A stretch of DNA of 62,948 bases, filler included, from 14 parts of 14 records of this genome joined end to end with filler, not necessarily neighbours in it, one strand, 5' to 3'. Counted from the whole stretch's first letter, positions 13,099-62,948 are shown. Notes: generated by a model not told the origin, from the sequence alone. Numbers and translations are program-made.

Positions 13099-13716
13099 TG
13101 GTGTCTGGCTCCGTGGCACGCAGATCGATCAGGCTGCTGCTGCTGATGTTGGTCAACAGTGGGCCGACCACTCGTTGTTCATCACTGGCACGAATGCTCG
13201 CATTGCTGAATTCGATGAATGAATCTTCCCTTCAGGCGCCGGAGAGTATTGCGCAGGCTTGGGTTACAAAATACGCCGAGTCCCGAGTGGTTTTGTTTCC
13301 CATTGGTGATTTGGTGTTCCCAGGTTGGTGGCAAGACAAGACAAGACAAGACAAGGTAGCNNNNNNNNNNNNNNNNNNNNNNNNNNNNNNNNNNNNNNNN
13401 NNNNTTAATTAATTAANNNNNNNNNNNNNNNNNNNNNNNNNNNNNNNNNNNNNNNNNNNNTCGGCGAGAGGTTTCTGGCGCTGTACGACTCGGCTAGGGG
13501 GCCCTCCGCTAGCCCTAGAGCGGGGTCGGAAAAGCCGTTTGCGATTAATATGATACGGAGTAGGTACGGTACTATACCCCTTGTGGTCGCCGGCATTTCG
13601 GTGATAGTATAGCAATCTGCGCTTTGTGGCGGTCGCTGCTGGCTAGTTGCGAGTCAGGGCATCAGCAGGCACGCCCCAGGGGGGAGGGCCGCGTTGCCCA
13701 CGCTGGCCGCGGGGTG

Positions 13717-16700
13717 ATGGAAGATGCGGGTTCTAGCCCCGAAGGTGGCCTTAGCGAGTGGAAGCCCTACGCCCGAGTTTTGCGCTGCGACGACGCCTCA
13801 GAGCCGATCTTCGCCTGCGAGGCGTTCCAGGCGCCGGGAGGGGGGTGGAAGCTGGCGACGGGCGGCAAGGACGGCAAGCTGCGCGTGTGGTGCGCTGAGA
13901 CTGGCAAATGCGATGTGGAAGAGGATGCGCACGATCGAGCGATCAGCGCGACGTGTGTTGTGCACGTCGACACAAGCCACCCGATCCGGTTGGTCACCGC
14001 TGGCGAGGACGGAAAAATTCTGCTGTGGGTGCTAGAAGGGCTGCCGGCGGAGCCAGTGGCCAAGCGCACAACTACCGTGAACATTGGTGGCGATAACGCG
14101 ATCACAGACTGTTGTCTACTTCCGATGCTCAGTGATGGTCATGTCAGAGTCTTGTGCGCGACGAAAAGCGGAAAGATCCAAGCGGTTGATTTGACAAAAG
14201 AGGGCGCAACGCTCGCCAGCGTCGAGACTCCACAGCATAATGCCATTTTCACCATCTCGACCAGCAAAGCATCCACAGAACTGCCACAGCTGGAAGGTTG
14301 GGAGGGATCCGAGGGTTGCACACAAGAAGTCCGTGTCGCCGGCGGGGGGCGGGACCCACAGGTGCGGATCTGGCGATTCTCAGCCGATGGCAAGGTCGCT
14401 GCTGAGGAGAGTCAAACACACAAGCACAACGGTGATGTTCGCGGCGTGGTCATCTTGGACGATGGGCTACAAGTGCTGTCTTGCTCGGGTGACCGCACGA
14501 CCGTGCTATCGCACATCGACAGTGGCTCTGCCATTGCTACGTTCGAGTGTGGAGCTGACGTTCACAGTTGCCGATTTATGAGTCGGGCTGAAACTGACGA
14601 GTTAGCCAGATACGGTTCGGGTCTGGTTCTGACATGCTCAAAGCAAGGTGCAATTCTGTGGGACATTGATACAACTGAGAAGCTCATGACGTACTGTGAT
14701 GCGCACGACCGGTCGATCGTCGCCAACTGCTGTACAATGCTTCAAGACGACAGCAATATCGCGCTTGGTAAGCCCGATGGCACTACGACGCTTGTGGACT
14801 TGCGAACTGGCCCCTCTGGCATACGTCTTGATCAAACGGACGGAGCACCTGGCGCCCAGAACGGCGTCTGCAAAGAGATCTGTGCGTTTACCGGTACAGA
14901 TGGAGATACCATGGCGTTGTCGTGTTCATATTCTGGTGTGCTTTCGGTCTGGAATGTATCGAAGGCGCAGCTGGTGCGAGAATACGAGGTTCTTACAGGC
15001 GAAAATTCCCAGCTGATGGACTGCGGCGTGCTTCCTACTACGGCAGGAGGCAGGGCTCGGCTGGTGACATGCGGAGGCGTAAACCAGGTCCTCTTCTATG
15101 GTGGCGAGGATTGGTCCACGCTTGATCAGGAATGGGTGTACAAAGGCCATGCGGACATTCCTCGAGGCGTTGCTATCTGCGCGAACGGAGAACGCGTAAT
15201 TAGTTGCTCCAAGGACAAAACCATTCATGTCATCGACGTGACAACAGACGAGCAAGGCCGAGTAACAGGTGGAGAGTGCGTGCGAATGCTCAAAGGTCAT
15301 GCCAGCCTAGTGGACCGGTGTTGCCTGTTTGAAGATGACAAGAAACTTCTTAGCGCTTCATGGGACAAAACCGCAAAGGTGTGGGACCTAAGTTCCGGGC
15401 AATGCATTCAAACCTTGGAAGGAAATGGCGACAAGCTGAGAGGCTGTGCAACGTTCGAAAACGGCATGCGGGCCGTTGCTGTCGGATCGGGCAGTACCAT
15501 GTGCGTGTGGGACCTCGACCTGCAAGGTTCACAGGACAGCATCCAGCCCAAGGTGCAGATTCCAACGGGACATACGAGCACAATATGGGGATTGGTATTG
15601 AAAGAGCGCGAAAACTTTGATGCTCCGCTGGTCATCACCTACAGCAACGACCGCACCATCAAGTGCTGGGATCTGACACCTGGCAAGGAGCACGAACTCG
15701 TTGGGGGTCGGCGGGCCTTAGAGAACCAACCGATGTGCGTAGCTGCCGTTGAGCCGGCGTTTCTGCACGGTCAGTTCTGCATCCTGGCTGGGTCCGTGGA
15801 CGAGATTTGGATGATCGATCAGAGCAGCATTCACACAAACCCATCTGCTGGCGCGGTCTGGGACGCACGAACCAGGGTCTCGCATGCCGACTTTGTGAGA
15901 TGGATCGCAGACTCGATCAAGGAATTTTCAGGGCATTGGCTGTACACGAGATGGCGAGATGATGGCTTTACGTTCGTCCACAAATTGACCTGTACCGGTA
16001 AGGATGAACACTCTGATAAATTCGGGCCTGAAGACGCCGTGCGCGTGCTGAAGGGGATAATGGAAGTGTTTGATACTGAGCGTGACGCGCTGACGGTCGG
16101 GGAGTACATTGGAGACAAATCTGACAAAGCTTTGTCGACGATTGGGCTACTGTCACGCTCTGGAAACGCAGATGGATATTGTGAAGAGACCGGCTGCCCA
16201 GTCTCTGCATTGACACTGGCCATTCTAGACGGTAACGAGGATATGGTCTCGCTTCTGCTCGATGACTACCGCCTTCAGATCGTTGTCGCGAACACTGACC
16301 TCCCGGCGATACAGTACAACTATAGGTCGGTCACGGAGCTCAGAGAAGCTGTGCTTGTGCGCCTATTCGAGAAGTTCCCGTCGCTCGCATCGGAGTTTCT
16401 CTGTAACCTCCAGCTCCTACGCACGGAGGATCTAGTGATGCGAGGAAGCAAGTGCTCGTTTGACTCAGACCCAAACAGCGCAGACGAGCAGCTCATGATC
16501 GGGCAGCTGTCTGGGGACAAGGTGCCATCGCCTGGGGCTAATCGGTCATCGAAGTGGTTGGACGACTGCATAGACACTATTTGGGCGGAATCAGGGAGGA
16601 AAAGCAGCCGGATACAAACTCGTCAACAGGATTCAGCTTGGGGCGAACGCGTCTGGTCGCACATGGTGCCTATTAGAGGGACCTTGGACAAACGAGAGCG

Positions 16701-18368
16701 GAAAGCGCTGCTCAGCCGTCATGCTGAGAACGCGGGAAATCAGCAGGCAGCACCAACAGAAAACAGCTGCAAGAGTTCGGAGCAGAACCCCTGTCGTAAA
16801 CTTGGCTATACGAGCGTCGCAGACACAATAAGCGATGAGCAGAACGAGGAGGAACAAAGGGAATCATCGCTATGTGGGTGGTGCTCCAAAGCATCTCACT
16901 GGGATGAGAACCACCAGCCACCCTTCACCCGCCTTTTAATCGCCGTTTTAGAGGCCGACCGGGCCAGCGGTGGACACAGCGGCGTCTTGTCTGCGCATGT
17001 GATTTATCAAATTGTCATGTACAAGTGGACTCCCCGTGGCGAAAAGGTGGTAGAGATGATCCACGCGATGTTTGCATCTTACGTCATCTACGTCATCCTT
17101 CTGACGGGTACCCTGATTTTCTTCCTGGATTCTCACGACGTGTCTATGCACGACGAGCCTGACCTGTGCGCTGTCGTTTCGTATTACGGGGTGTGGGGCT
17201 CTTTGGCTTTCTGCTCTGTCTACGTCTGCCTTCAGCTTTGGCATGAAGTGCTTCAGCTGCAAATCCTCGGGCGCGCATACTTCTCTGATCCGTTTAACAT
17301 TATCGACTGGTTAGCCGGCCTGCTTGGATTATTCTCCTTCGTTGCGATCTATCTACATACAAAGTTCCCGATGACAGTGGATCAGATTAATCTGCTGGAA
17401 ACGTGCGCCTCACAAGGTTTGCTCCTCTCGTGGGTTAAGGTTCTCTATTTTCTGAAAGGTACGCTGACAGTCGCGTCCTGCTACCTACATTGCAATTGCC
17501 TGCTGGTGCTGCCATCGTTCTGCCCTTGTGCTGCTGACCCCAACGCGCCGCGGCAGGTATGGACAGCACCACCTGGATCGTGCACATGCTTTTCTCCATC
17601 ATTTCAAACATTAAGACCTTTATCATGGTCTTATTCATCATCTTATTTGCGTTCGGGGCATCCTTTCATCTGCTCTTGAGACAGAGCGACGCGGTCGTTG
17701 CGGGTGGTGACAATGCCAACGTTGCTGGTCAGGCTGGCAACCAGAGTGCCGTGTCTGGATTGACCGTGTATGATGATACTGCGTTAGCTTTCGTGGGCGT
17801 CTACAACATGATGTTCGGACAATTCGAGTATGAAGATTTTACAAGCGCCCCCAAATACCCAGCAGTCGCAATCATGAACTTTGTCGTGTTCATGCTGCTT
17901 GTCCCCACGGTGATGCTCAACGCACTGGTCGCCTTCATGAATGGCATGTACGATCAACTCAAGTGCGGGCAGGCAGGGGTGATCCTAGAGGAGAGGCTGT
18001 CCTTGATCCTCGAGTTTGAAGCTAACATGCGCTTCAATGAGCACTGCGCCGAATACTCGACCCGGTGGAAGCAGCTCTATACGATTTTGTCGCTCCAGAT
18101 TCCCTTCTCTACCAGGCACCCCTATCTCCACCTGATTGGTCCGCAGATGTCGGCTACTGCCGCGGTGACTCAGTCCCAGCGCAAAAACCGAAGGGAGCGT
18201 GACATGCAGCGCGAGGTGACGCACCTCTTGGATGAGCATATTGCATTAGCAGAGCAAGTCGTAACTTTGCAGAACGATATGAAGGAGATGCAGAAGTCTA
18301 TTGTGACTGATATGCATAGCATGCAGGCCGACATCGTCGACATCAAGACACGTGGAACAAAGACGTAG
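13717..18368 (+). CDS. WD40-repeat / TRP-type cation channel fusion
   Basis: Many GH...WD repeats (e.g. LKGHASLVDRCCLFEDDKKLLSASWDKTAKVWD) and an ankyrin-like SALTLAILDGNEDMVSLLL. The 6-TM region has YFSDPFNIIDW, pore MMFGQFEY and S6 VMLNALVAFMNGMYD, followed by a coiled coil. One intron, 17459-17556. Confidence 0.88.
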
Positions 18369-23590: not shown

Positions 23591-23914
23591 CGATCGCGCT
23601 GCCGTGTCCGAAGTCGCCCTGCTCTGTCCGCGACGAGCGACTCGTCGCCGGACTCGCCGTCCGGCGTCCGGCGCGCGCGCGGAGTCGCGCCGCCGCCGGT
23701 AGATCATAGATCAATATAATATAATGATATATAGGACAATGTATGTATCGCGCGCTCGCCCGCGCGCGCCCCGCGGGGTCGGTTTATGATACTCAGGCAG
23801 TACCCAGGTTGAGGNNNNNNNNNNNNNNNNNNNNNNNNNNNNNNNNNNNNNNNNNNNNTTAATTAATTAANNNNNNNNNNNNNNNNNNNNNNNNNNNNNN
23901 NNNNNNNNNNNNNN

Positions 23915-55733: not shown

Positions 55734-56163
55734 CGAGCAGCCAGCCACGCCACGCCTGCACTGACCCGGGCGCGGTGCTACGCGCGCCGCGCATACGTAC
55801 GTCGCGCGCGCCGACGCGCGGCGATACCGCACCCATTGCCCAAGTCCGTGGGTTATGAACCCGNNNNNNNNNNNNNNNNNNNNNNNNNNNNNNNNNNNNN
55901 NNNNNNNTTAATTAATTAANNNNNNNNNNNNNNNNNNNNNNNNNNNNNNNNNNNNNNNNNNNNCGCAATATCAGTCCCGACGGTGGGCTGGGTATCAGTG
56001 AGTTTTCCGAATCCCAAGCGAATCCAACCCAGCCTGATGCCTGTGACGATGATGGCCAAAAGAGGTCGCCCCAATTTCGGCCTCATAGTGTTGAGTGGGG
56101 CGTGTACGCACTAGCAGGCGGCGGCTCAGCTCGCAGCGGCCAGGGAGAGTGAGGCTCGTGCGG

Positions 56164-59100
56164 ATGTCGATCACGGTGGACGACTGGGGCTCGGCTGTGG
56201 TTGGGCTGAAAGCGGAGGGGGCGGAGGGGGCTGAGGCTGGGTCTCGCACTGAGCATGAGGGGTCTCCTCCGCACCCGGCGCTGCTGCTGGAGCTGGTCGA
56301 GGAGAACAGCTCGACGATGGGGGTAGATGGCCTGCATGTCACATTCTACCAGATGGAGGCGCGGACGGGGCAGTCAGATTTCTTTGGCATCGAATTTGCA
56401 GTGCAGCCGGACGAGGCTGACCCCGACGCCACGCTCAAGGTCATCCGTCGCATCAAGAGAGACTCTACCGCTGCGAGTTTCGAGCCCCCAAACCAGATGC
56501 TCGCGCCAGGCATGGTCTTGAAAAGGGTCCAGGGCGAGGATGTTCAGGCCGAAGATCTGGCGACCACCTTGGGACGCATCGAGATGGCGCCGTTGCCCAT
56601 TGAGCTCGTGTTTGCCTCTGGTGTAGACGGATCGATGCCGCATGTCGTCGCGGTCGAGACGCCGCGCGACGCGTACGGCTTTCCGTTCGCCGTCGGGCGT
56701 GGCACTGGATCTGGGTACTTCCACACGTCACCGCGGACCCACCGGCGCATCGATGCCGAAGTACAGTCGAAGTCTGTATCACGGAAAGCGCGAAAACGAG
56801 TCGAAACACAGGAGAAGAAGTGGCAACGATGGCTGGAGCAGCCGCACCGCACCGATGCAATTAAAATTGCAAAGCTGGGCGTGCCTGAGCTGATGCGCCG
56901 TGATGTGTGGCCCAAACTTGCGGGGCTGGAAGAGATGAAGGCCAAGTGTGGTGATGACGCCACGTTCGTCGCACTGCGCAAGGCCGGTGAAGACGGCGCA
57001 GTGCCGCAGTCACCAGCCCGAACCGAGCAGGCCGTACAATTTGACCTAGACCAGATTGAGAAAGACCTACTTCGAACCTTCCCATCGCACCGACTCTTCG
57101 ATTCTAGCAGTGCGTCTTCTGGTGGGGTTGGTGTCGACGTTCTGCGTCAGATGCTCACTGCTTTCGTGCACCGGAATCCCACTACAGGCTACGTGCAATC
57201 AATGAATTACGTTGCAGCGACGATCATCATATGCCTGCTGCAGCGGGTGGACGACGCGAGCGTGAAAGACGAGGAAAGAGAGAATTCGTTCTGGCTATTT
57301 TCTGCTATAGTGGAGAACATTATGCCACAGTACTACGTCTCAGATCTCTTCGGTGTGCAGCGCGACATTCAGTGCATGGTCCTTTCACTGCGCAGATTGC
57401 TGCCGCAGCTATATGCTCACCTGGATCAACTGTGCATGCTGGAGCGCCTCAAAGTACAATTTTTCACTCCGTGGCTAATGAAACTCTTTGTCAATGCATT
57501 GCCGGTCTCGACAGTGCTCAGAGTGTGGGATCTAATGCTGGCAGAGCTGTTTGCAGGCGGCGAGCCGACCGAGCTGCTTGTGCGGGTCGGCCTGGCGGCA
57601 CTGGCTGAACACGAAGATGTACTTCTTAAAGTGCAAGACTCCGAAGTGTTCGCAGAGGAGCTGCACAGAGTATGCGCACAAACGACTGACGTGGACGCTT
57701 TGCTCAGCAGAGTTTGCTCGCGGCGCTGGGTGCGGATAGTGACAGAGGAGCAGGAGTCCGCGGTTCAGGAACTAAGGCCAACACGTCCACCTGAGCCAGA
57801 GCCGGAGCCCGAGCCGGCGCCGGAGCCGGAGCCTGAGCTCATCCTACAGCCAGATGCTAAAATAGAGCCTGCTACTAGAACAGCTGGTACTCTGGCTCGT
57901 ACAGCGTCTCTGCCGTTGTCACGCACACGATCTGCAGACAAACAGACCAAGCAGGTCCTCACCGCGATGCCGCCCGCATCTGCTTCAGCTTGCCACTATT
58001 ACATTGTGGTGTGCAAACGTGCGAACGTGCGCGAAAAGAAGTCGAAGGGGTCCGACTCTTGCGGTGTTCTGCAGGAGGGTACGGTGGTGGCTGCGCGACG
58101 CGAGGTGGAGAATATGGCAGGTCGGCTACGCATTCAATTTGAGTACAAAGGTGACGATGGTGCTGTGAAGCTTGGTTGGGTGAGCGTGATATCAAAAGCT
58201 GGTCGAGTGCTGCTCCGGCGATGTTCTTCTTGGGAAGCCTCCCCAGCAACGCGGAATAACCTGTTGCTCGATCGGACAACGTCCCCGATGATCTGCAGTT
58301 TTTGGTGCTGCGACCGGGTTGAGGTGTTTTCGAGCCCTGCGCTCAAGGAAAGCATTGCGTGCCTTGAGGCTGGGGTGATAATCGATGGCTTGGAACGTAG
58401 GCCGAAGCAGAAAGCGCCACGTCTCAACTTCTCTGCGCTTCTTCCTGCGAACAAAGCTTTAGGGAGCGCTCCTGGGAGCCAGGTCGCGGCACGTGCCCAT
58501 GTAGTGCGCTTCGAGCTGCCAGATCTGCGGATGGGCTGGGTGTGCACTCACGACCAGTTGACCGGTCAGCTGCAGCTTCTCGATACCTTCATGCGAGCCG
58601 AAAGCTTCCAGACGGAAGGGCATGAATCCGACGCACAATGCACCCAAATGGAGGACGGTGTACCTGTACCCCCATCACTGCAGGAGCAGCAACATCGTTG
58701 CGATATGGAGCTGGCCGAAATCGCACGACTGAAGAAGGAGTACGATATTGCGATGCGTGCTGATGAGTCGCCAGTGATTCGGTCTGACTTAGACGAGCAG
58801 CTTGCAGCGTGGAAACAGGCCAAGATGCGTGTTGATAGTGAGCTTATCAAGCAGGACCCGCAAGTGGTACAGGCTAAGGCACAGCAGACAGCGGCGGCGC
58901 CTGAACCTGCAGTGGTCGCAGAAGCACTAGAGTTGCCTCCGTTGCCGTTGCCAAGTGCAAACAGCACAGGTAGCAGCAGCGCGACTGACACCTCTACCCC
59001 ACGTCAGTTGCCCCAGCGCACACTATCATTTGGCGACTGGGTGTACAACACGCCCAGAGCAGAGGAGGCAGAACCGCCCTTCGACCAGTGGGGGCGCCCA

Positions 59101-59259
59101 CGAGGGCACATTGACTACGGTGTTGACCCATCTCAGCTGCTGATCGAGAACAGTGATGGCGACAGCTCAGAGGATGACGTGAGCACTGGATCTGATGATG
59201 ATTACGATTCCGACGAGGATGACGAGGAGGACCAGGACGCAGATCATCGGGCAGAATGA
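56164..59259 (+). CDS. TBC (Rab-GAP) protein with N-terminal PDZ-like and two SH3b-like domains
   Basis: FGIEF...LAPGMVLKRVQGEDV...PIELVF (PDZ); QIEKDLLRTFP, GYVQSMNYVA and LRVWD (TBC); VRE...LQEGTVV...GWVS (SH3b-like); a PEPEPE tract and an acidic tail. Confidence 0.88.
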   Translation: MSITVDDWGSAVVGLKAEGAEGAEAGSRTEHEGSPPHPALLLELVEENSSTMGVDGLHVTFYQMEARTGQSDFFGIEFAVQPDEADPDATLKVIRRIKRDSTAASFEPPNQMLAPGMVLKRVQGEDVQAEDLATTLGRIEMAPLPIELVFASGVDGSMPHVVAVETPRDAYGFPFAVGRGTGSGYFHTSPRTHRRIDAEVQSKSVSRKARKRVETQEKKWQRWLEQPHRTDAIKIAKLGVPELMRRDVWPKLAGLEEMKAKCGDDATFVALRKAGEDGAVPQSPARTEQAVQFDLDQIEKDLLRTFPSHRLFDSSSASSGGVGVDVLRQMLTAFVHRNPTTGYVQSMNYVAATIIICLLQRVDDASVKDEERENSFWLFSAIVENIMPQYYVSDLFGVQRDIQCMVLSLRRLLPQLYAHLDQLCMLERLKVQFFTPWLMKLFVNALPVSTVLRVWDLMLAELFAGGEPTELLVRVGLAALAEHEDVLLKVQDSEVFAEELHRVCAQTTDVDALLSRVCSRRWVRIVTEEQESAVQELRPTRPPEPEPEPEPAPEPEPELILQPDAKIEPATRTAGTLARTASLPLSRTRSADKQTKQVLTAMPPASASACHYYIVVCKRANVREKKSKGSDSCGVLQEGTVVAARREVENMAGRLRIQFEYKGDDGAVKLGWVSVISKAGRVLLRRCSSWEASPATRNNLLLDRTTSPMICSFWCCDRVEVFSSPALKESIACLEAGVIIDGLERRPKQKAPRLNFSALLPANKALGSAPGSQVAARAHVVRFELPDLRMGWVCTHDQLTGQLQLLDTFMRAESFQTEGHESDAQCTQMEDGVPVPPSLQEQQHRCDMELAEIARLKKEYDIAMRADESPVIRSDLDEQLAAWKQAKMRVDSELIKQDPQVVQAKAQQTAAAPEPAVVAEALELPPLPLPSANSTGSSSATDTSTPRQLPQRTLSFGDWVYNTPRAEEAEPPFDQWGRPRGHIDYGVDPSQLLIENSDGDSSEDDVSTGSDDDYDSDEDDEEDQDADHRAE

Positions 59260-59786: not shown

Positions 59787-62633
59787 TGCAGATGGCCTGG
59801 AATGTACGGCTTGTCCCGCTGGAAAGCAGCCAGACAATAGCAAGGAGAGGTGTGATGGTTGCCACGACTCTGGTCCTAATGCCTATTCACCCGACGGTAT
59901 TGAGTGCAAAGCCTGCCCCACAAGACACACCCCTAGCTACGACCGAACTCGCTGCTTTTGCCAAACCAACACGTACAGTGCAATTGCTTTGGGCACTATT
60001 CGCTGCAGAGGCGAATCGTTCAGGTATACTGGCATAGACGAGGACGAATGTGCTGTATGTCCGCCCTGCATGGATTGCACCAAATCGGGGGAAACAAAGC
60101 TGAAGAGTGGATGGACTTTCTTCGGAGCGCAGGGTGATGCATACCACTGCCCAGGGGCAGACACGTTCGAAGCCTGCCCACCTCTTTTGCTCAACAGCTC
60201 GACCACCTTGGATGAGAGCACGTGCGCCAAAGGGTACGACGGCCCGTTGTGTGGAAACTGCGACGTGGACTGGAACCATTTGAAAACTGGGAATGAGTGC
60301 AGCGCTTGCAGCGATGGTGTTATCAATGTCCCTCTCATGTTCGTCCTGTTTTTAGCAAGCATCATCATGGCGATAGCAACGGTTAGCGGCGGTCTCAGTA
60401 TTTTATCAGACAATGGTGTCCTCACCGATCTTCGGATCATCATTGGCTTTTGTAAGTTGCTCAACGTCATCCGCGTCTCTCGTTGCCAACTGCGATTTTG
60501 AAGTCAATTACTGACCAGGCTTTCTGCATCATCACCCACAGATCAAATTTTGGGCCAAGCTGGTACAGTCCTCGATTTGAACTTTACCTACCCGATTTCA
60601 AATCTCATTAGCCTGGTCAAGCTGCTGTTCCTAGATGTTCGAAACATCATTCGCCTAGACTGCTTTGAAATGGGCGGATTTGGTGGAAAGCTCGCGACAA
60701 ATCTAGTCGTTGTGCCCGCCATAATTGGCGGCATATGCCTCTTAGTTTACATGCAGCAGCGACGCACACTGACAGCACTTATAGCAGCAGGTGCATCCGA
60801 TGAATCTGGACTCCATGTCTTGCAAGTAGAACTGAAGCACCGGCTAATGATTGGCATATTCTTAGTCTGTAAGCGACCACTCCGTGCTTTTCAATTTTCA
60901 TGCCTATGGTTTATCCGTACTAATCCAGCGCTATGGCGTAGATCCCACCATTTGCACGACTCTCTTCCGGGTTCCGCAGTGCAAAGACTACGGAGATTTC
61001 TCTTTTCATGAAGACGATTACCGGATCGACTGCTCGACGACATATTTCAAGCTAGTGTCGGCATTTGCTATATGCACGATTATACTGATCCCATTCGGAG
61101 TGCCAGCTTTGTTCATGTACTTCATGCTGCGAGCCAAACAGAGGCTTGGTGGCACTGTGAACGAGACGCAGCTAGGCGGAGCAAAGCTCGTGGCAGACGA
61201 TGTAGACGACGAATCTGATGTGTACGGCTTCCTAATTGCCGACTGTAAGTTACTCCACATCGACCGCATCTCTCGTTGCAAATCGCAATCTTGACATCGA
61301 TAATCTGACACGGCTTACGCTGCATCATCACAGATCGACCAGATTCGTGGTACCATGAGATTGTGGTCTACTCAAGAAAGCTCATGCTCGGTGGCGTTTC
61401 CATCATCATGGGAAGAGGCACGATGGCCCAAACATGTAAGCCACTCCTGCTCGGTCTGTCTGTCGACCATTTGTCCTAATAATATGACCCATCAGGCACG
61501 GTTGGTGTGCACAGATTTTATAATTTGCGTAGAGGCGTGCTACCTGATGCATCACATGAGAACATTTCCATTCATCAGCTACAAACACAACGTTATCGAA
61601 GGGATTGGTCACGTGGCGTTGATGCTACTGTACACGGTCACGCTGATCATGCGCGTTGACAACCCAGAATATTGGGGCGCTGAGTGGTTCCCGAAGACCG
61701 GTGAGAGCATTTCAACGGTGGAATTCCACAACTGCCACACATGGTGCTCACCTCAGTTAGGAAATTTTGCGCTAAACGCTGGTGCCTTATTTGCTAGGAT
61801 ATTCGTGGTTTATCGTCTTCATGTTCGCTGTTCTGCTGCCATTTCCCACGATCTGGTATCAGTACAAGCAACGTAAGGTGACGCGTAATCAGCAAGACGA
61901 AAAAGAATTCGGTGAGACGAACAACCCGCTCGCCGATGACTTGGGTACTGCCTCTCCACCGCACGAGACCAACGTGGTGAAGATGGCTGCGCGTGCGAAT
62001 CAAGCCAAGATGCAGCGCGAAGCGCAGAAGGCAGAGGCGGATAATCGAAAACTACGCGCTCAAGTGGAACTGCTACAAAATAAGTTGCGTGCGGCAGTTG
62101 CTTCCACGCCAACTCCAGCCTTCTCTGAAGGTCTATTTGATGGCCACAACGACTCCGAGGACCCCACACCAAGCATACCGACACAGGAATTGATTGTGAA
62201 GAAGCTAGTAGAGGATGAAATGCTGAGCGACGAGACTCGAGAATCTGCAAAGAAAGCTCTCGATGTGCTCGCAACATCAACGATTCAGTCTCTTGAGGCT
62301 CAATTCGTGACGCGAACGTCACTGGCCCAACAAGACCTCGAGATCGCCAAGCAGAGGCAAGCGATCGTGGCGGAGAAACGCTCGGAGGTCGAAGCCTCTG
62401 CCACAAAGGAGATGACAGAATGGCTCGCACACCATCGCTTGCTACGGTTCGTGGACGTGATAGCTAGGGTCGCCGGGCCAGATTCTTCCCCGGGGGACCT
62501 GCAGTACCTCACCGAAAGCGACGTCCAAGAGATCGGTAGCGAAATGACTAACATTGAGAAGCGTCGAATGCAAGAGGGGTTGCGAGCCCTTGCGCCGACC
62601 CTACAACCACAGCCGGAGCCACAGGCTGAGTAA
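59787..62633 (+). CDS. Cys-rich ectodomain, multi-pass TM region, coiled coil and SAM domain; 5' partial
   Basis: Removing introns 60452-60541, 60869-60941, 61245-61333, 61436-61514 and 61701-61797 restores a continuous frame (IIGFYQIL, FLVYPTIC, IADYRPDSWYHEIVVYSRK). C-terminal EWLAHHRL...DLQYLTESDVQEIG...IEKRR is SAM-like. Confidence 0.85.
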
Positions 62634-62794
62634 CCGATCACTCCTCATATCGGCCGTGAACTTTCTACACAATTGTAGTTGTTGGGATCGTCCGTAGCAC
62701 TGACGCAAAGCAACGAACAAAGCAACGGAATGCTGATGTGAAAATGGTTCGAATAAATCACTTGTGTATCTATTTTCCCGACCCAAAGATATAC

Positions 62795-62948
62795 ATGGAA
62801 GAGTTTACCTTGGGCGAGTTAGGTGTGTTTCTGGGAGTGGTTGGCGGTATTATGAACAGCGTGCTCCTGATCTTTCAGAAGAGTAAGTGTGCAAACATGA
62901 CCCATTACATGACCCATTTGAAAGGCGCGAGAACGTTCTACGGCTCCA
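62795..62948 (+). CDS. Small single-TM ORF (MEEFTLGELGVFLGVVGGIMNSVLLIFQKSKC...), runs off the window
   Basis: ATG in an AT-rich context, a hydrophobic helix, then KSKC. Not in the supplied ORF track. Confidence 0.35.
   Translation, partial: MEEFTLGELGVFLGVVGGIMNSVLLIFQKSKCANMTHYMTHLKGARTFYGS

Follow-up and report, generated by a model that had tools for sequence, protein, structure and literature searches.

A homologous pair of introns in an uncultured marine protist suggests a probable old same-gene intron duplication

Two of the five introns in a single gene of an uncultured marine protist are homologous over their whole length, and the exons around them are unrelated. We refer to them as intron A (60452-60541, + strand) and intron B (61245-61333, + strand). 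Because the introns share ancestry and their exons do not, intron sequence has been copied to a new site in this lineage. We favor the reading, at a probability of roughly 0.55, that A and B represent an old non-segmental same-gene intron duplication, an intron transposition in cis in which exon junction sequence guided one intron to a look-alike site. Documented traces of the origin of new spliceosomal introns are few and come mostly from fungi and green algae, with a few from animals. An earlier note on this DNA had attributed the pair to a mobile introner family. Its view that an intron was copied to a new site holds, since the introns are kin and the exons are not, but the family is unsupported, with no third copy in the data searched.

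The window analyzed here, a stretch of 62,948 bases, is made up of 14 contigs with an identical linker (44 N, TTAATTAATTAA, 44 N) at each of the 13 joins. The linkers lie within positions 3275-59786 (for example, 13361-13460), so neighboring pieces need not adjoin in the genome. Several contig ends are microsatellites or homopolymers, including poly-G before 59687, (GTGGGT)n after 10227 and (ACAAG)n before 13361. Both introns lie in the last piece (59787-62948), parts of which are present in 19 metagenome and metatranscriptome runs from 15 studies of marine plankton and seawater. The closest protein matches of the host, an uncultured marine protist, bear a Picozoa-style label. The rest of the window contains very long uninterrupted frames of 2942, 1371, 1080 and 1054 codons (23871-32699 on the + strand, 13564-17679, 44590-47832 and 56095-59259, respectively). 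The sampled genome outside the host gene therefore looks intron-poor; the host gene, by contrast, carries five introns in 1.35 kb. An intron finder based on strict ORF continuity recovered only five introns elsewhere in the window, not enough to derive a background consensus. The 2942-codon frame carries calcium-binding EGF-like repeats.

The host gene occupies 59788-62633 on the + strand and is 5'-partial, its contig starting at 59787. It comprises six exons and five introns. Removing the five GT-AG segments leaves a frame of 805 codons whose sole stop is the terminal one (62631-62633). The encoded protein has Cys-rich repeats resembling those of TNFR and ephrin receptors, a multi-pass membrane domain and a coiled-coil tail, and it belongs to a large family that combines Cys-rich TNFR-like repeats with a membrane domain. 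Pfam hits of its homologues give the membrane domain a weak likeness to TRP (PF06011). Exon 3 as a query retrieved 19 homologous proteins. Twelve of these are labelled eukprot:COSAG04, and one related genome holds at least 12 paralogues. The closest relatives are 72% identical over exon 3 and 53-64% identical overall, and tblastn searches with the homologues as queries matched all main exons. Elsewhere in the window there is no paralogue of the membrane domain; the only match is to the Cys-rich repeats, at 25-31 kb.

Introns A and B have the features of ordinary introns. Intron A is 90 nt long and interrupts a Tyr codon in phase 1 (...GGCTTTT/ATCAAA..., where the slash marks the splice junction). 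It has a GTAAGT donor, a TACTGAC branch motif, a CAG acceptor and an in-frame TGA at 60499-60501. Intron B, at 89 nt, likewise lies in phase 1 of a Tyr codon (...GCCGACT/ATCGAC...) and has a GTAAGT donor, a CTGAC branch motif and a CAG acceptor. Both lengths fall inside the range of the other introns of the gene (73-97 nt). Intron I2 (60869-60941, + strand, 73 nt) is in phase 1 of a Tyr codon at T/ATC and, beyond its 5' motif GTAAGCGACCACTCC, has no detectable similarity to A or B. Intron I4 (61436-61514, + strand, 79 nt) is in phase 1 of a Tyr codon at T/ATT, and its 5' end, GTAAGCCACTCC, is similar to that of B. Intron I5 (61701-61797, + strand, 97 nt; GTGAGA...TAG) lies in phase 1 of a Gly codon and is unrelated to the other four.

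The homologues read without a gap across every junction that they cover: 12 of 12 at A, 15 of 15 at I2 (where three further homologues cover only part of the junction), 17 of 17 at B, 14 of 14 at I4 and 12 of 12 at I5. At site A, the 12 covering homologues read LRILVGFYQILGQ. Removing the five segments thus restores sequence that is contiguous in homologues, which identifies all five as introns by homology. The earlier note had proposed that splicing be confirmed with RNA. For B this is borne out: a contig from metatranscriptome X15 covers 61092-61244 and continues with nine letters that correspond to 61334-61342 rather than to the intron, joining 61244 directly to 61334. No RNA contig bridges intron A. 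Five RNA contigs were placed, none overlapping any intron, and the one nearest to A starts at 60554. DNA contigs from two different runs span both introns (for A, record 2 of run X1 and record 14 of run X2), so neither intron is an assembly artefact. Judged by their sequence, A and B are ordinary U2-type GT-AG spliceosomal introns, with splicing of A predicted from homology.

The similarity between A and B is far beyond chance. The earlier note had placed both introns exactly, and each has the form GTAAGT...CTGAC...CAG. We reproduced the 39 ungapped identities that it counted over the first 50 nt and found its common blocks, CTGAC..GGCTT and CTGCATCATCAC, in both introns. An end-to-end gapped alignment has 67 identities in 88 positions (76%), with 11 transitions and 10 transversions, for a K2P distance of 0.29. 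The global alignment score of 39 compares with a mean of 1.7 and a maximum of 10 among 2000 shuffles of B in which the splice-site ends were fixed. In local alignment, A scored 41 against B, and the next best score was 13 among 176 GTRAG-starting segments of 110 nt from both strands of the window. Comparing the introns with 20-nt flanks by blastn gave one HSP with a pairwise E of 2.5e-14. This HSP opens 1 nt ahead of the intron and stops 6 nt short of its 3' end; the similarity thus follows the extent of the intron. By our own estimate, about one run of 11-12 identities is expected by chance at 76% identity over 90 nt, and the common blocks therefore call for no special explanation. The reverse complement of CTGCATCATCAC has a box-C-like GTGATGA but lacks a D box to match, and the idea of a small RNA hosted by the introns was dropped.

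As had been claimed for this pair, the exons around the introns are unrelated. The protein segments around the two sites gave a local score of 34, compared with a shuffle mean of 29.7 (sd 4.3), and an internal protein duplication was rejected on this ground. The exon DNA is nearly unrelated as well. Nine of the 15 bases upstream of A (60437-60451, + strand) match those upstream of B (61230-61244) in the pattern ATTG.C....T (binomial P 0.004, post hoc), and four of 15 match downstream. On weak evidence, the upstream match may be a remnant of junction-guided targeting.

We compared the intron sites with those of relatives. Six homologous loci from JGI metagenome contigs (L001-L006) encode proteins with 37-53% identity to the host protein. 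These loci are rich in introns, and L001-L005 are genomic because they carry other introns. Among the loci covering site A (L001, L002 and L004), none has an intron there, and none of the five covering site B (L001-L005) has an intron at B. The I2 site is common to L001 and L002. The I4 site is common to L004 and L005, with introns within 2 nt of it in L001 and L002, and the I5 site is common to L005. COSAG names denote co-assembled Picozoa single-cell genomes, with Prodigal ORFs called on genomic contigs, in the account of PMC8599508 that describes them. If the eukprot:COSAG04 homologues are ORFs from that source, they are unspliced genomic frames that lack all five introns. Within about 15 codons around site B (61230-61380), six homologues have introns at six different positions: at D/Y in the window, after K in P0022, after RPE in L001, after YY in L005, after EI in L003 and after EIV in L004. 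This scatter could reflect a hot spot of independent gains or intron sliding.

A sister lineage places a bound on the age of intron B. The ORF P0021, from an independent assembly with 87% identity, reads ...FLIAD and then CKLLHVDRISRCESRS, where reading through into B in the window gives CKLLHIDRISRCKSQS. Intron B is thus older than the split from the sister lineage. Of the 16 residues read through from the first 48 nt of B, 13 are the same in the sister lineage, and exon 3 has about 89% identity, counted by eye. Of the three residues that differ, one matches intron A in the sister copy, which is what a common ancestry of A and B predicts. Intron I2 is also present in the sister lineage, as read-through at the N-terminus of P0021. 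A search for a close relative that would show site A of the sister lineage gave only relatives with 47-63% identity. One protein, P0027, ends at ...GFY, possibly just a contig end. The K2P distance of A and B, together with a duplication that predates a sister lineage already carrying B, indicates that the event is old.

The two introns also share their junction context. Both have the same orientation, and both lie in phase 1 of a Tyr codon at T/ATC, with 210 codons between the sites. Four of the five introns in the gene are in phase 1 of conserved Tyr codons at T/AT, three of them at T/ATC (60451/60542, 60868/60942 and 61244/61334; I4 is at 61435/61515). The spliced coding sequence has eight T/ATC sites among 2414 positions, and two random insertions would both fall on such sites with P of about 1e-5. 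The motif GTA[AC]G.{0,6}ACTC[CT] occurs three times on the two strands of the window, each time at the start of an intron: I2 (60869), B (61245) and I4 (61436). It also stands at the intron starts L001_2075 and L004_1627 in distant homologous loci. The five other introns found heuristically in the window lack both the T/AT context and the motif. This 5' motif may be a remnant of common origin or an undescribed splicing signal.

We looked for internal features that mark mobile elements or functional RNAs. Reading the junctions of these two copies, a sample without statistics, revealed no direct repeat across the ends of A or B that would represent a target-site duplication. In neither intron do the 20 nt at one end complement the 20 nt at the other, so no terminal inverted repeats were found at that length. 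Neither a stable nor a common fold was predicted (z-scores of 0.68 and -0.23 against shuffles), and no Rfam family lies inside A or B. Models of archaeal C/D-box snoRNAs gave sub-threshold matches in exon 1 (60404-60447, - strand) at 18.5 and 17.3 bits, against gathering thresholds of 39 and 45, and these matches are most likely due to chance. In I2, B and I4, the first four to five bases of the downstream exon recur 3-5 nt upstream of the branch motif (60915-60918, 61296-61300 and 61469-61472). At this position the difference between A and B (TCAA versus TCGA) mirrors the difference between their exons. An exon-start 4-mer upstream of the branch site was found in three of 26 introns (permutation P 0.029, post hoc).

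L004, which is a distant homologue from another organism, has a same-gene pair of its own, independent of A and B. Its introns at 1156-1265 and 1627-1724 align with a global score of 24, compared with a mean of 3.2 and a maximum of 12 among 2000 shuffles, and 20 of 23 positions are identical in a non-repetitive block. Both introns are in phase 0 at GAT/nTT. The partners thus again share phase and junction, which makes this pair like that of A and B. The second copy lies 6 nt after another intron, and the micro-exon between them, TGGGAT (1621-1626), restores a conserved Trp-Asp. When 25 introns were compared in 300 pairings, the two same-gene pairs ranked first and second. That both pairs join partners with the same phase and the same junction suggests that the copy is aimed by junction sequence, acting through RNA (reverse splicing) or DNA (microhomology).

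Searches for further copies were negative. A profile of A and B run with nhmmer --max found no third copy in the 62.9-kb window (next best E 1.7) and no match in L001-L006. We placed contigs on the window at a likeness of at least 80% from X1, which is the best-matching run (30,709 contigs, 4.86 Mb), from the metagenome X2 (2.36 Gb) and from two RNA runs. No extra contig fell on either intron in any of these runs. At other positions in the gene the placement picked up partial matches of only 36-44 nt, which shows that it can find short pieces. It did not pair A with B, as no contig was assigned to two places in the window, and copies that are 76% alike would escape it. Copies as diverged as A is from B were detectable inside the window; elsewhere, detection required 80% likeness or exact blocks. 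Three patterns built from conserved blocks of A and B each had zero matches in JGI metagenome contigs, IMG/VR and GTDB genomes. These collections did not return even the original locus; they probably lack the organism, which makes the negative scans weak. A protein-guided search for the locus in GTDB genomes and IMG/VR also found nothing.

We propose the following model for the same-gene duplication that we favor. A complete intron would have been copied in the same orientation, without flanking exon, to a second T/ATC site in phase 1 of a Tyr codon. The likeliest route would be RNA-mediated: the excised intron would reverse-splice into its own transcript at a look-alike junction, and the product would be reverse-transcribed and written into the gene through a short recombination tract. 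Intron I2, which lies between A and B, was not lost, so if cDNA was the route, the conversion tract must have been short or the template only partly spliced. Where PMC3443670 treats ectopic reverse splicing, it describes the process as lacking an in vivo demonstration. A DNA route could yield the same product if an intron-bearing fragment were pasted in by microhomology at ATTG.C....T/ATC.A. We infer copying within the gene rather than from an outside source, an RNA route and guidance by junction sequence. With both sites free of introns in every homologue compared, either A or B could be the parent, and an outside third source is as parsimonious as a copy made within the gene.

The main rival to this model makes A and B part of an introner-like family, either of low copy number or old and decayed, with copies elsewhere, a preference for T/AT(C) and the 5' signature GTAAG(N)ACTCC. 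We consider this unlikely, although several observations favor it. Both sites look like gains with no parent identified, targeting is clearly non-random, and intron positions are very scattered across the gene family. The 5' motif is confined in the window to the starts of I2, B and I4 and recurs at L001_2075 and L004_1627. In the survey figures of PMC9860276, 39 of 230 aquatic species (17%) carry introners. Other findings speak against such a family. The other contigs of the same assembly yielded zero further copies in 59.8 kb, and the five introns found heuristically there have neither the motif nor the T/AT context. At 80% likeness or above, X1 (4.86 Mb of contigs) and X2 likewise yielded none. 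The pair has no target-site duplication, inverted terminal repeat or stable fold, and the rest of the window, with its frames of 2942, 1371, 1080 and 1054 codons, is intron-poor. Two members also compare with the at least four similar introns per genome that define a family in the pipeline section of PMC9860276, and two are all that we found in the window, X1, X2 and the three collections. The similarity of A and B starts within 5 exonic or 10 intronic bases at both boundaries, in line with the boundary rule of that pipeline. The pipeline also requires dissimilar host proteins for similar introns; because A and B lie in one protein, the pair would be filtered out, although the local exon segments are unrelated. 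On present evidence, the pair does not reveal a new introner family. A more far-reaching version of junction guidance is doubtful and, in our judgment, a weaker candidate still: introns of this protist lineage would multiply by re-inserting at repeats of their own exon junction (T/ATC here and GAT/nTT in the L004 pair), in what would be the spliceosomal equivalent of group II intron homing. Four of the five introns (T/AT, phase 1, Tyr, common GTAAG..ACTCC 5' end) would then be products of serial copying, which would also explain the scatter of positions in the family.

Two further explanations fare worse. Candidate sources of the similarity are a segmental duplication within the gene, a transfer between paralogues and gene conversion acting on two introns that already existed; it is improbable that any of these accounts for it. 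In their favor, the family is rich in paralogues (one related genome has at least 12), the exon bases upstream agree at nine of 15 positions, and half of the fungal same-gene duplications are segmental in the tally given by PMC3609843. A segmental duplication is nonetheless largely refuted here, because the flanking protein segments are mutually unrelated and no exon is duplicated, each flank being conserved and collinear with intron-less homologues. The window contains no membrane-domain paralogue, and conversion would need prior homology between introns at sites that are intron-free in all compared homologues. It is more improbable still that a common functional element (a small RNA within the introns, for example, or a sequence acting in splicing or regulation) has kept A and B alike in place of a recent copy. 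In the sister lineage, B (13 of 16 residues) is not obviously evolving faster than exon 3 (about 89%), as such constraint would have it. Neither intron, however, contains an Rfam family, the only matches being sub-threshold, exonic and on the minus strand. The introns have no stable or common fold, and 76% identity from end to end would still need a common origin.

We compared the pair with known cases of intron multiplication. Fungal genomes have yielded same-gene intron duplications, half of them free of exon duplication, and C. elegans has added a few (Collemare et al. 2013, PMC3609843, in its account of these events). The pair A and B resembles the non-segmental cases of that account: the homologous introns lie in one gene, the flanking exons are not duplicated, length and fold stability are those of ordinary introns, and copies in other genes were not seen in our limited data. 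The published pairs are near-identical, whereas A and B are 76% alike, so the event reported here is much older. The host differs too, being an uncultured marine protist and not a fungus. The portion of PMC3609843 that describes these duplications makes no mention of sites with phase and exact junction motif in common. The intron transpositions attributed to reverse splicing in Mycosphaerella and Oikopleura, as presented in PMC3443670, likewise involve a complete intron that carries its own donor, branch site and acceptor to a new site without a target-site duplication. The mechanism is inferred in those cases, as it is for A and B. Most suspected events in that presentation are at former intron positions; sites A and B are intron-free in all compared homologues. 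The L004 copy, however, is separated from another intron by only 6 nt.

The comparison with introners is mixed. Like the introners of Micromonas, Aureococcus, fungi and others in the description by Gozashti et al. (2022, PMC9860276), A and B are similar over the whole intron, the similarity stops at exon boundaries, the host is aquatic and the insertion can be spliced. Unlike the elements described there, they are two copies in one gene, have no target-site duplication, inverted repeat or stable structure, and are not longer than neighboring introns. Fungal introner-like elements occur in hundreds of copies, exceed regular introns in length and have an unusually stable predicted fold, according to the passages on them in PMC3609843; A and B lack the copy excess, the extra length and the stable fold. 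The absence of a target-site duplication and of inverted termini also separates them from DNA-transposon introners. A full-text literature search found no paper that joins 'introner' and 'Picozoa'.

We conclude that A and B add a case from an unstudied marine lineage to a type of event that is already known, probably same-gene intron duplication, with the matching of their junctions as a notable feature. Homology over the whole intron, unrelated exons, sites that are both empty in relatives, and identical phase and junction make A and B a clean pair that attests to intron copying in an uncultured marine lineage. The matching of junctions, in suggesting a copy aimed by sequence, is relevant to whether introns are transposed by way of RNA or of DNA.
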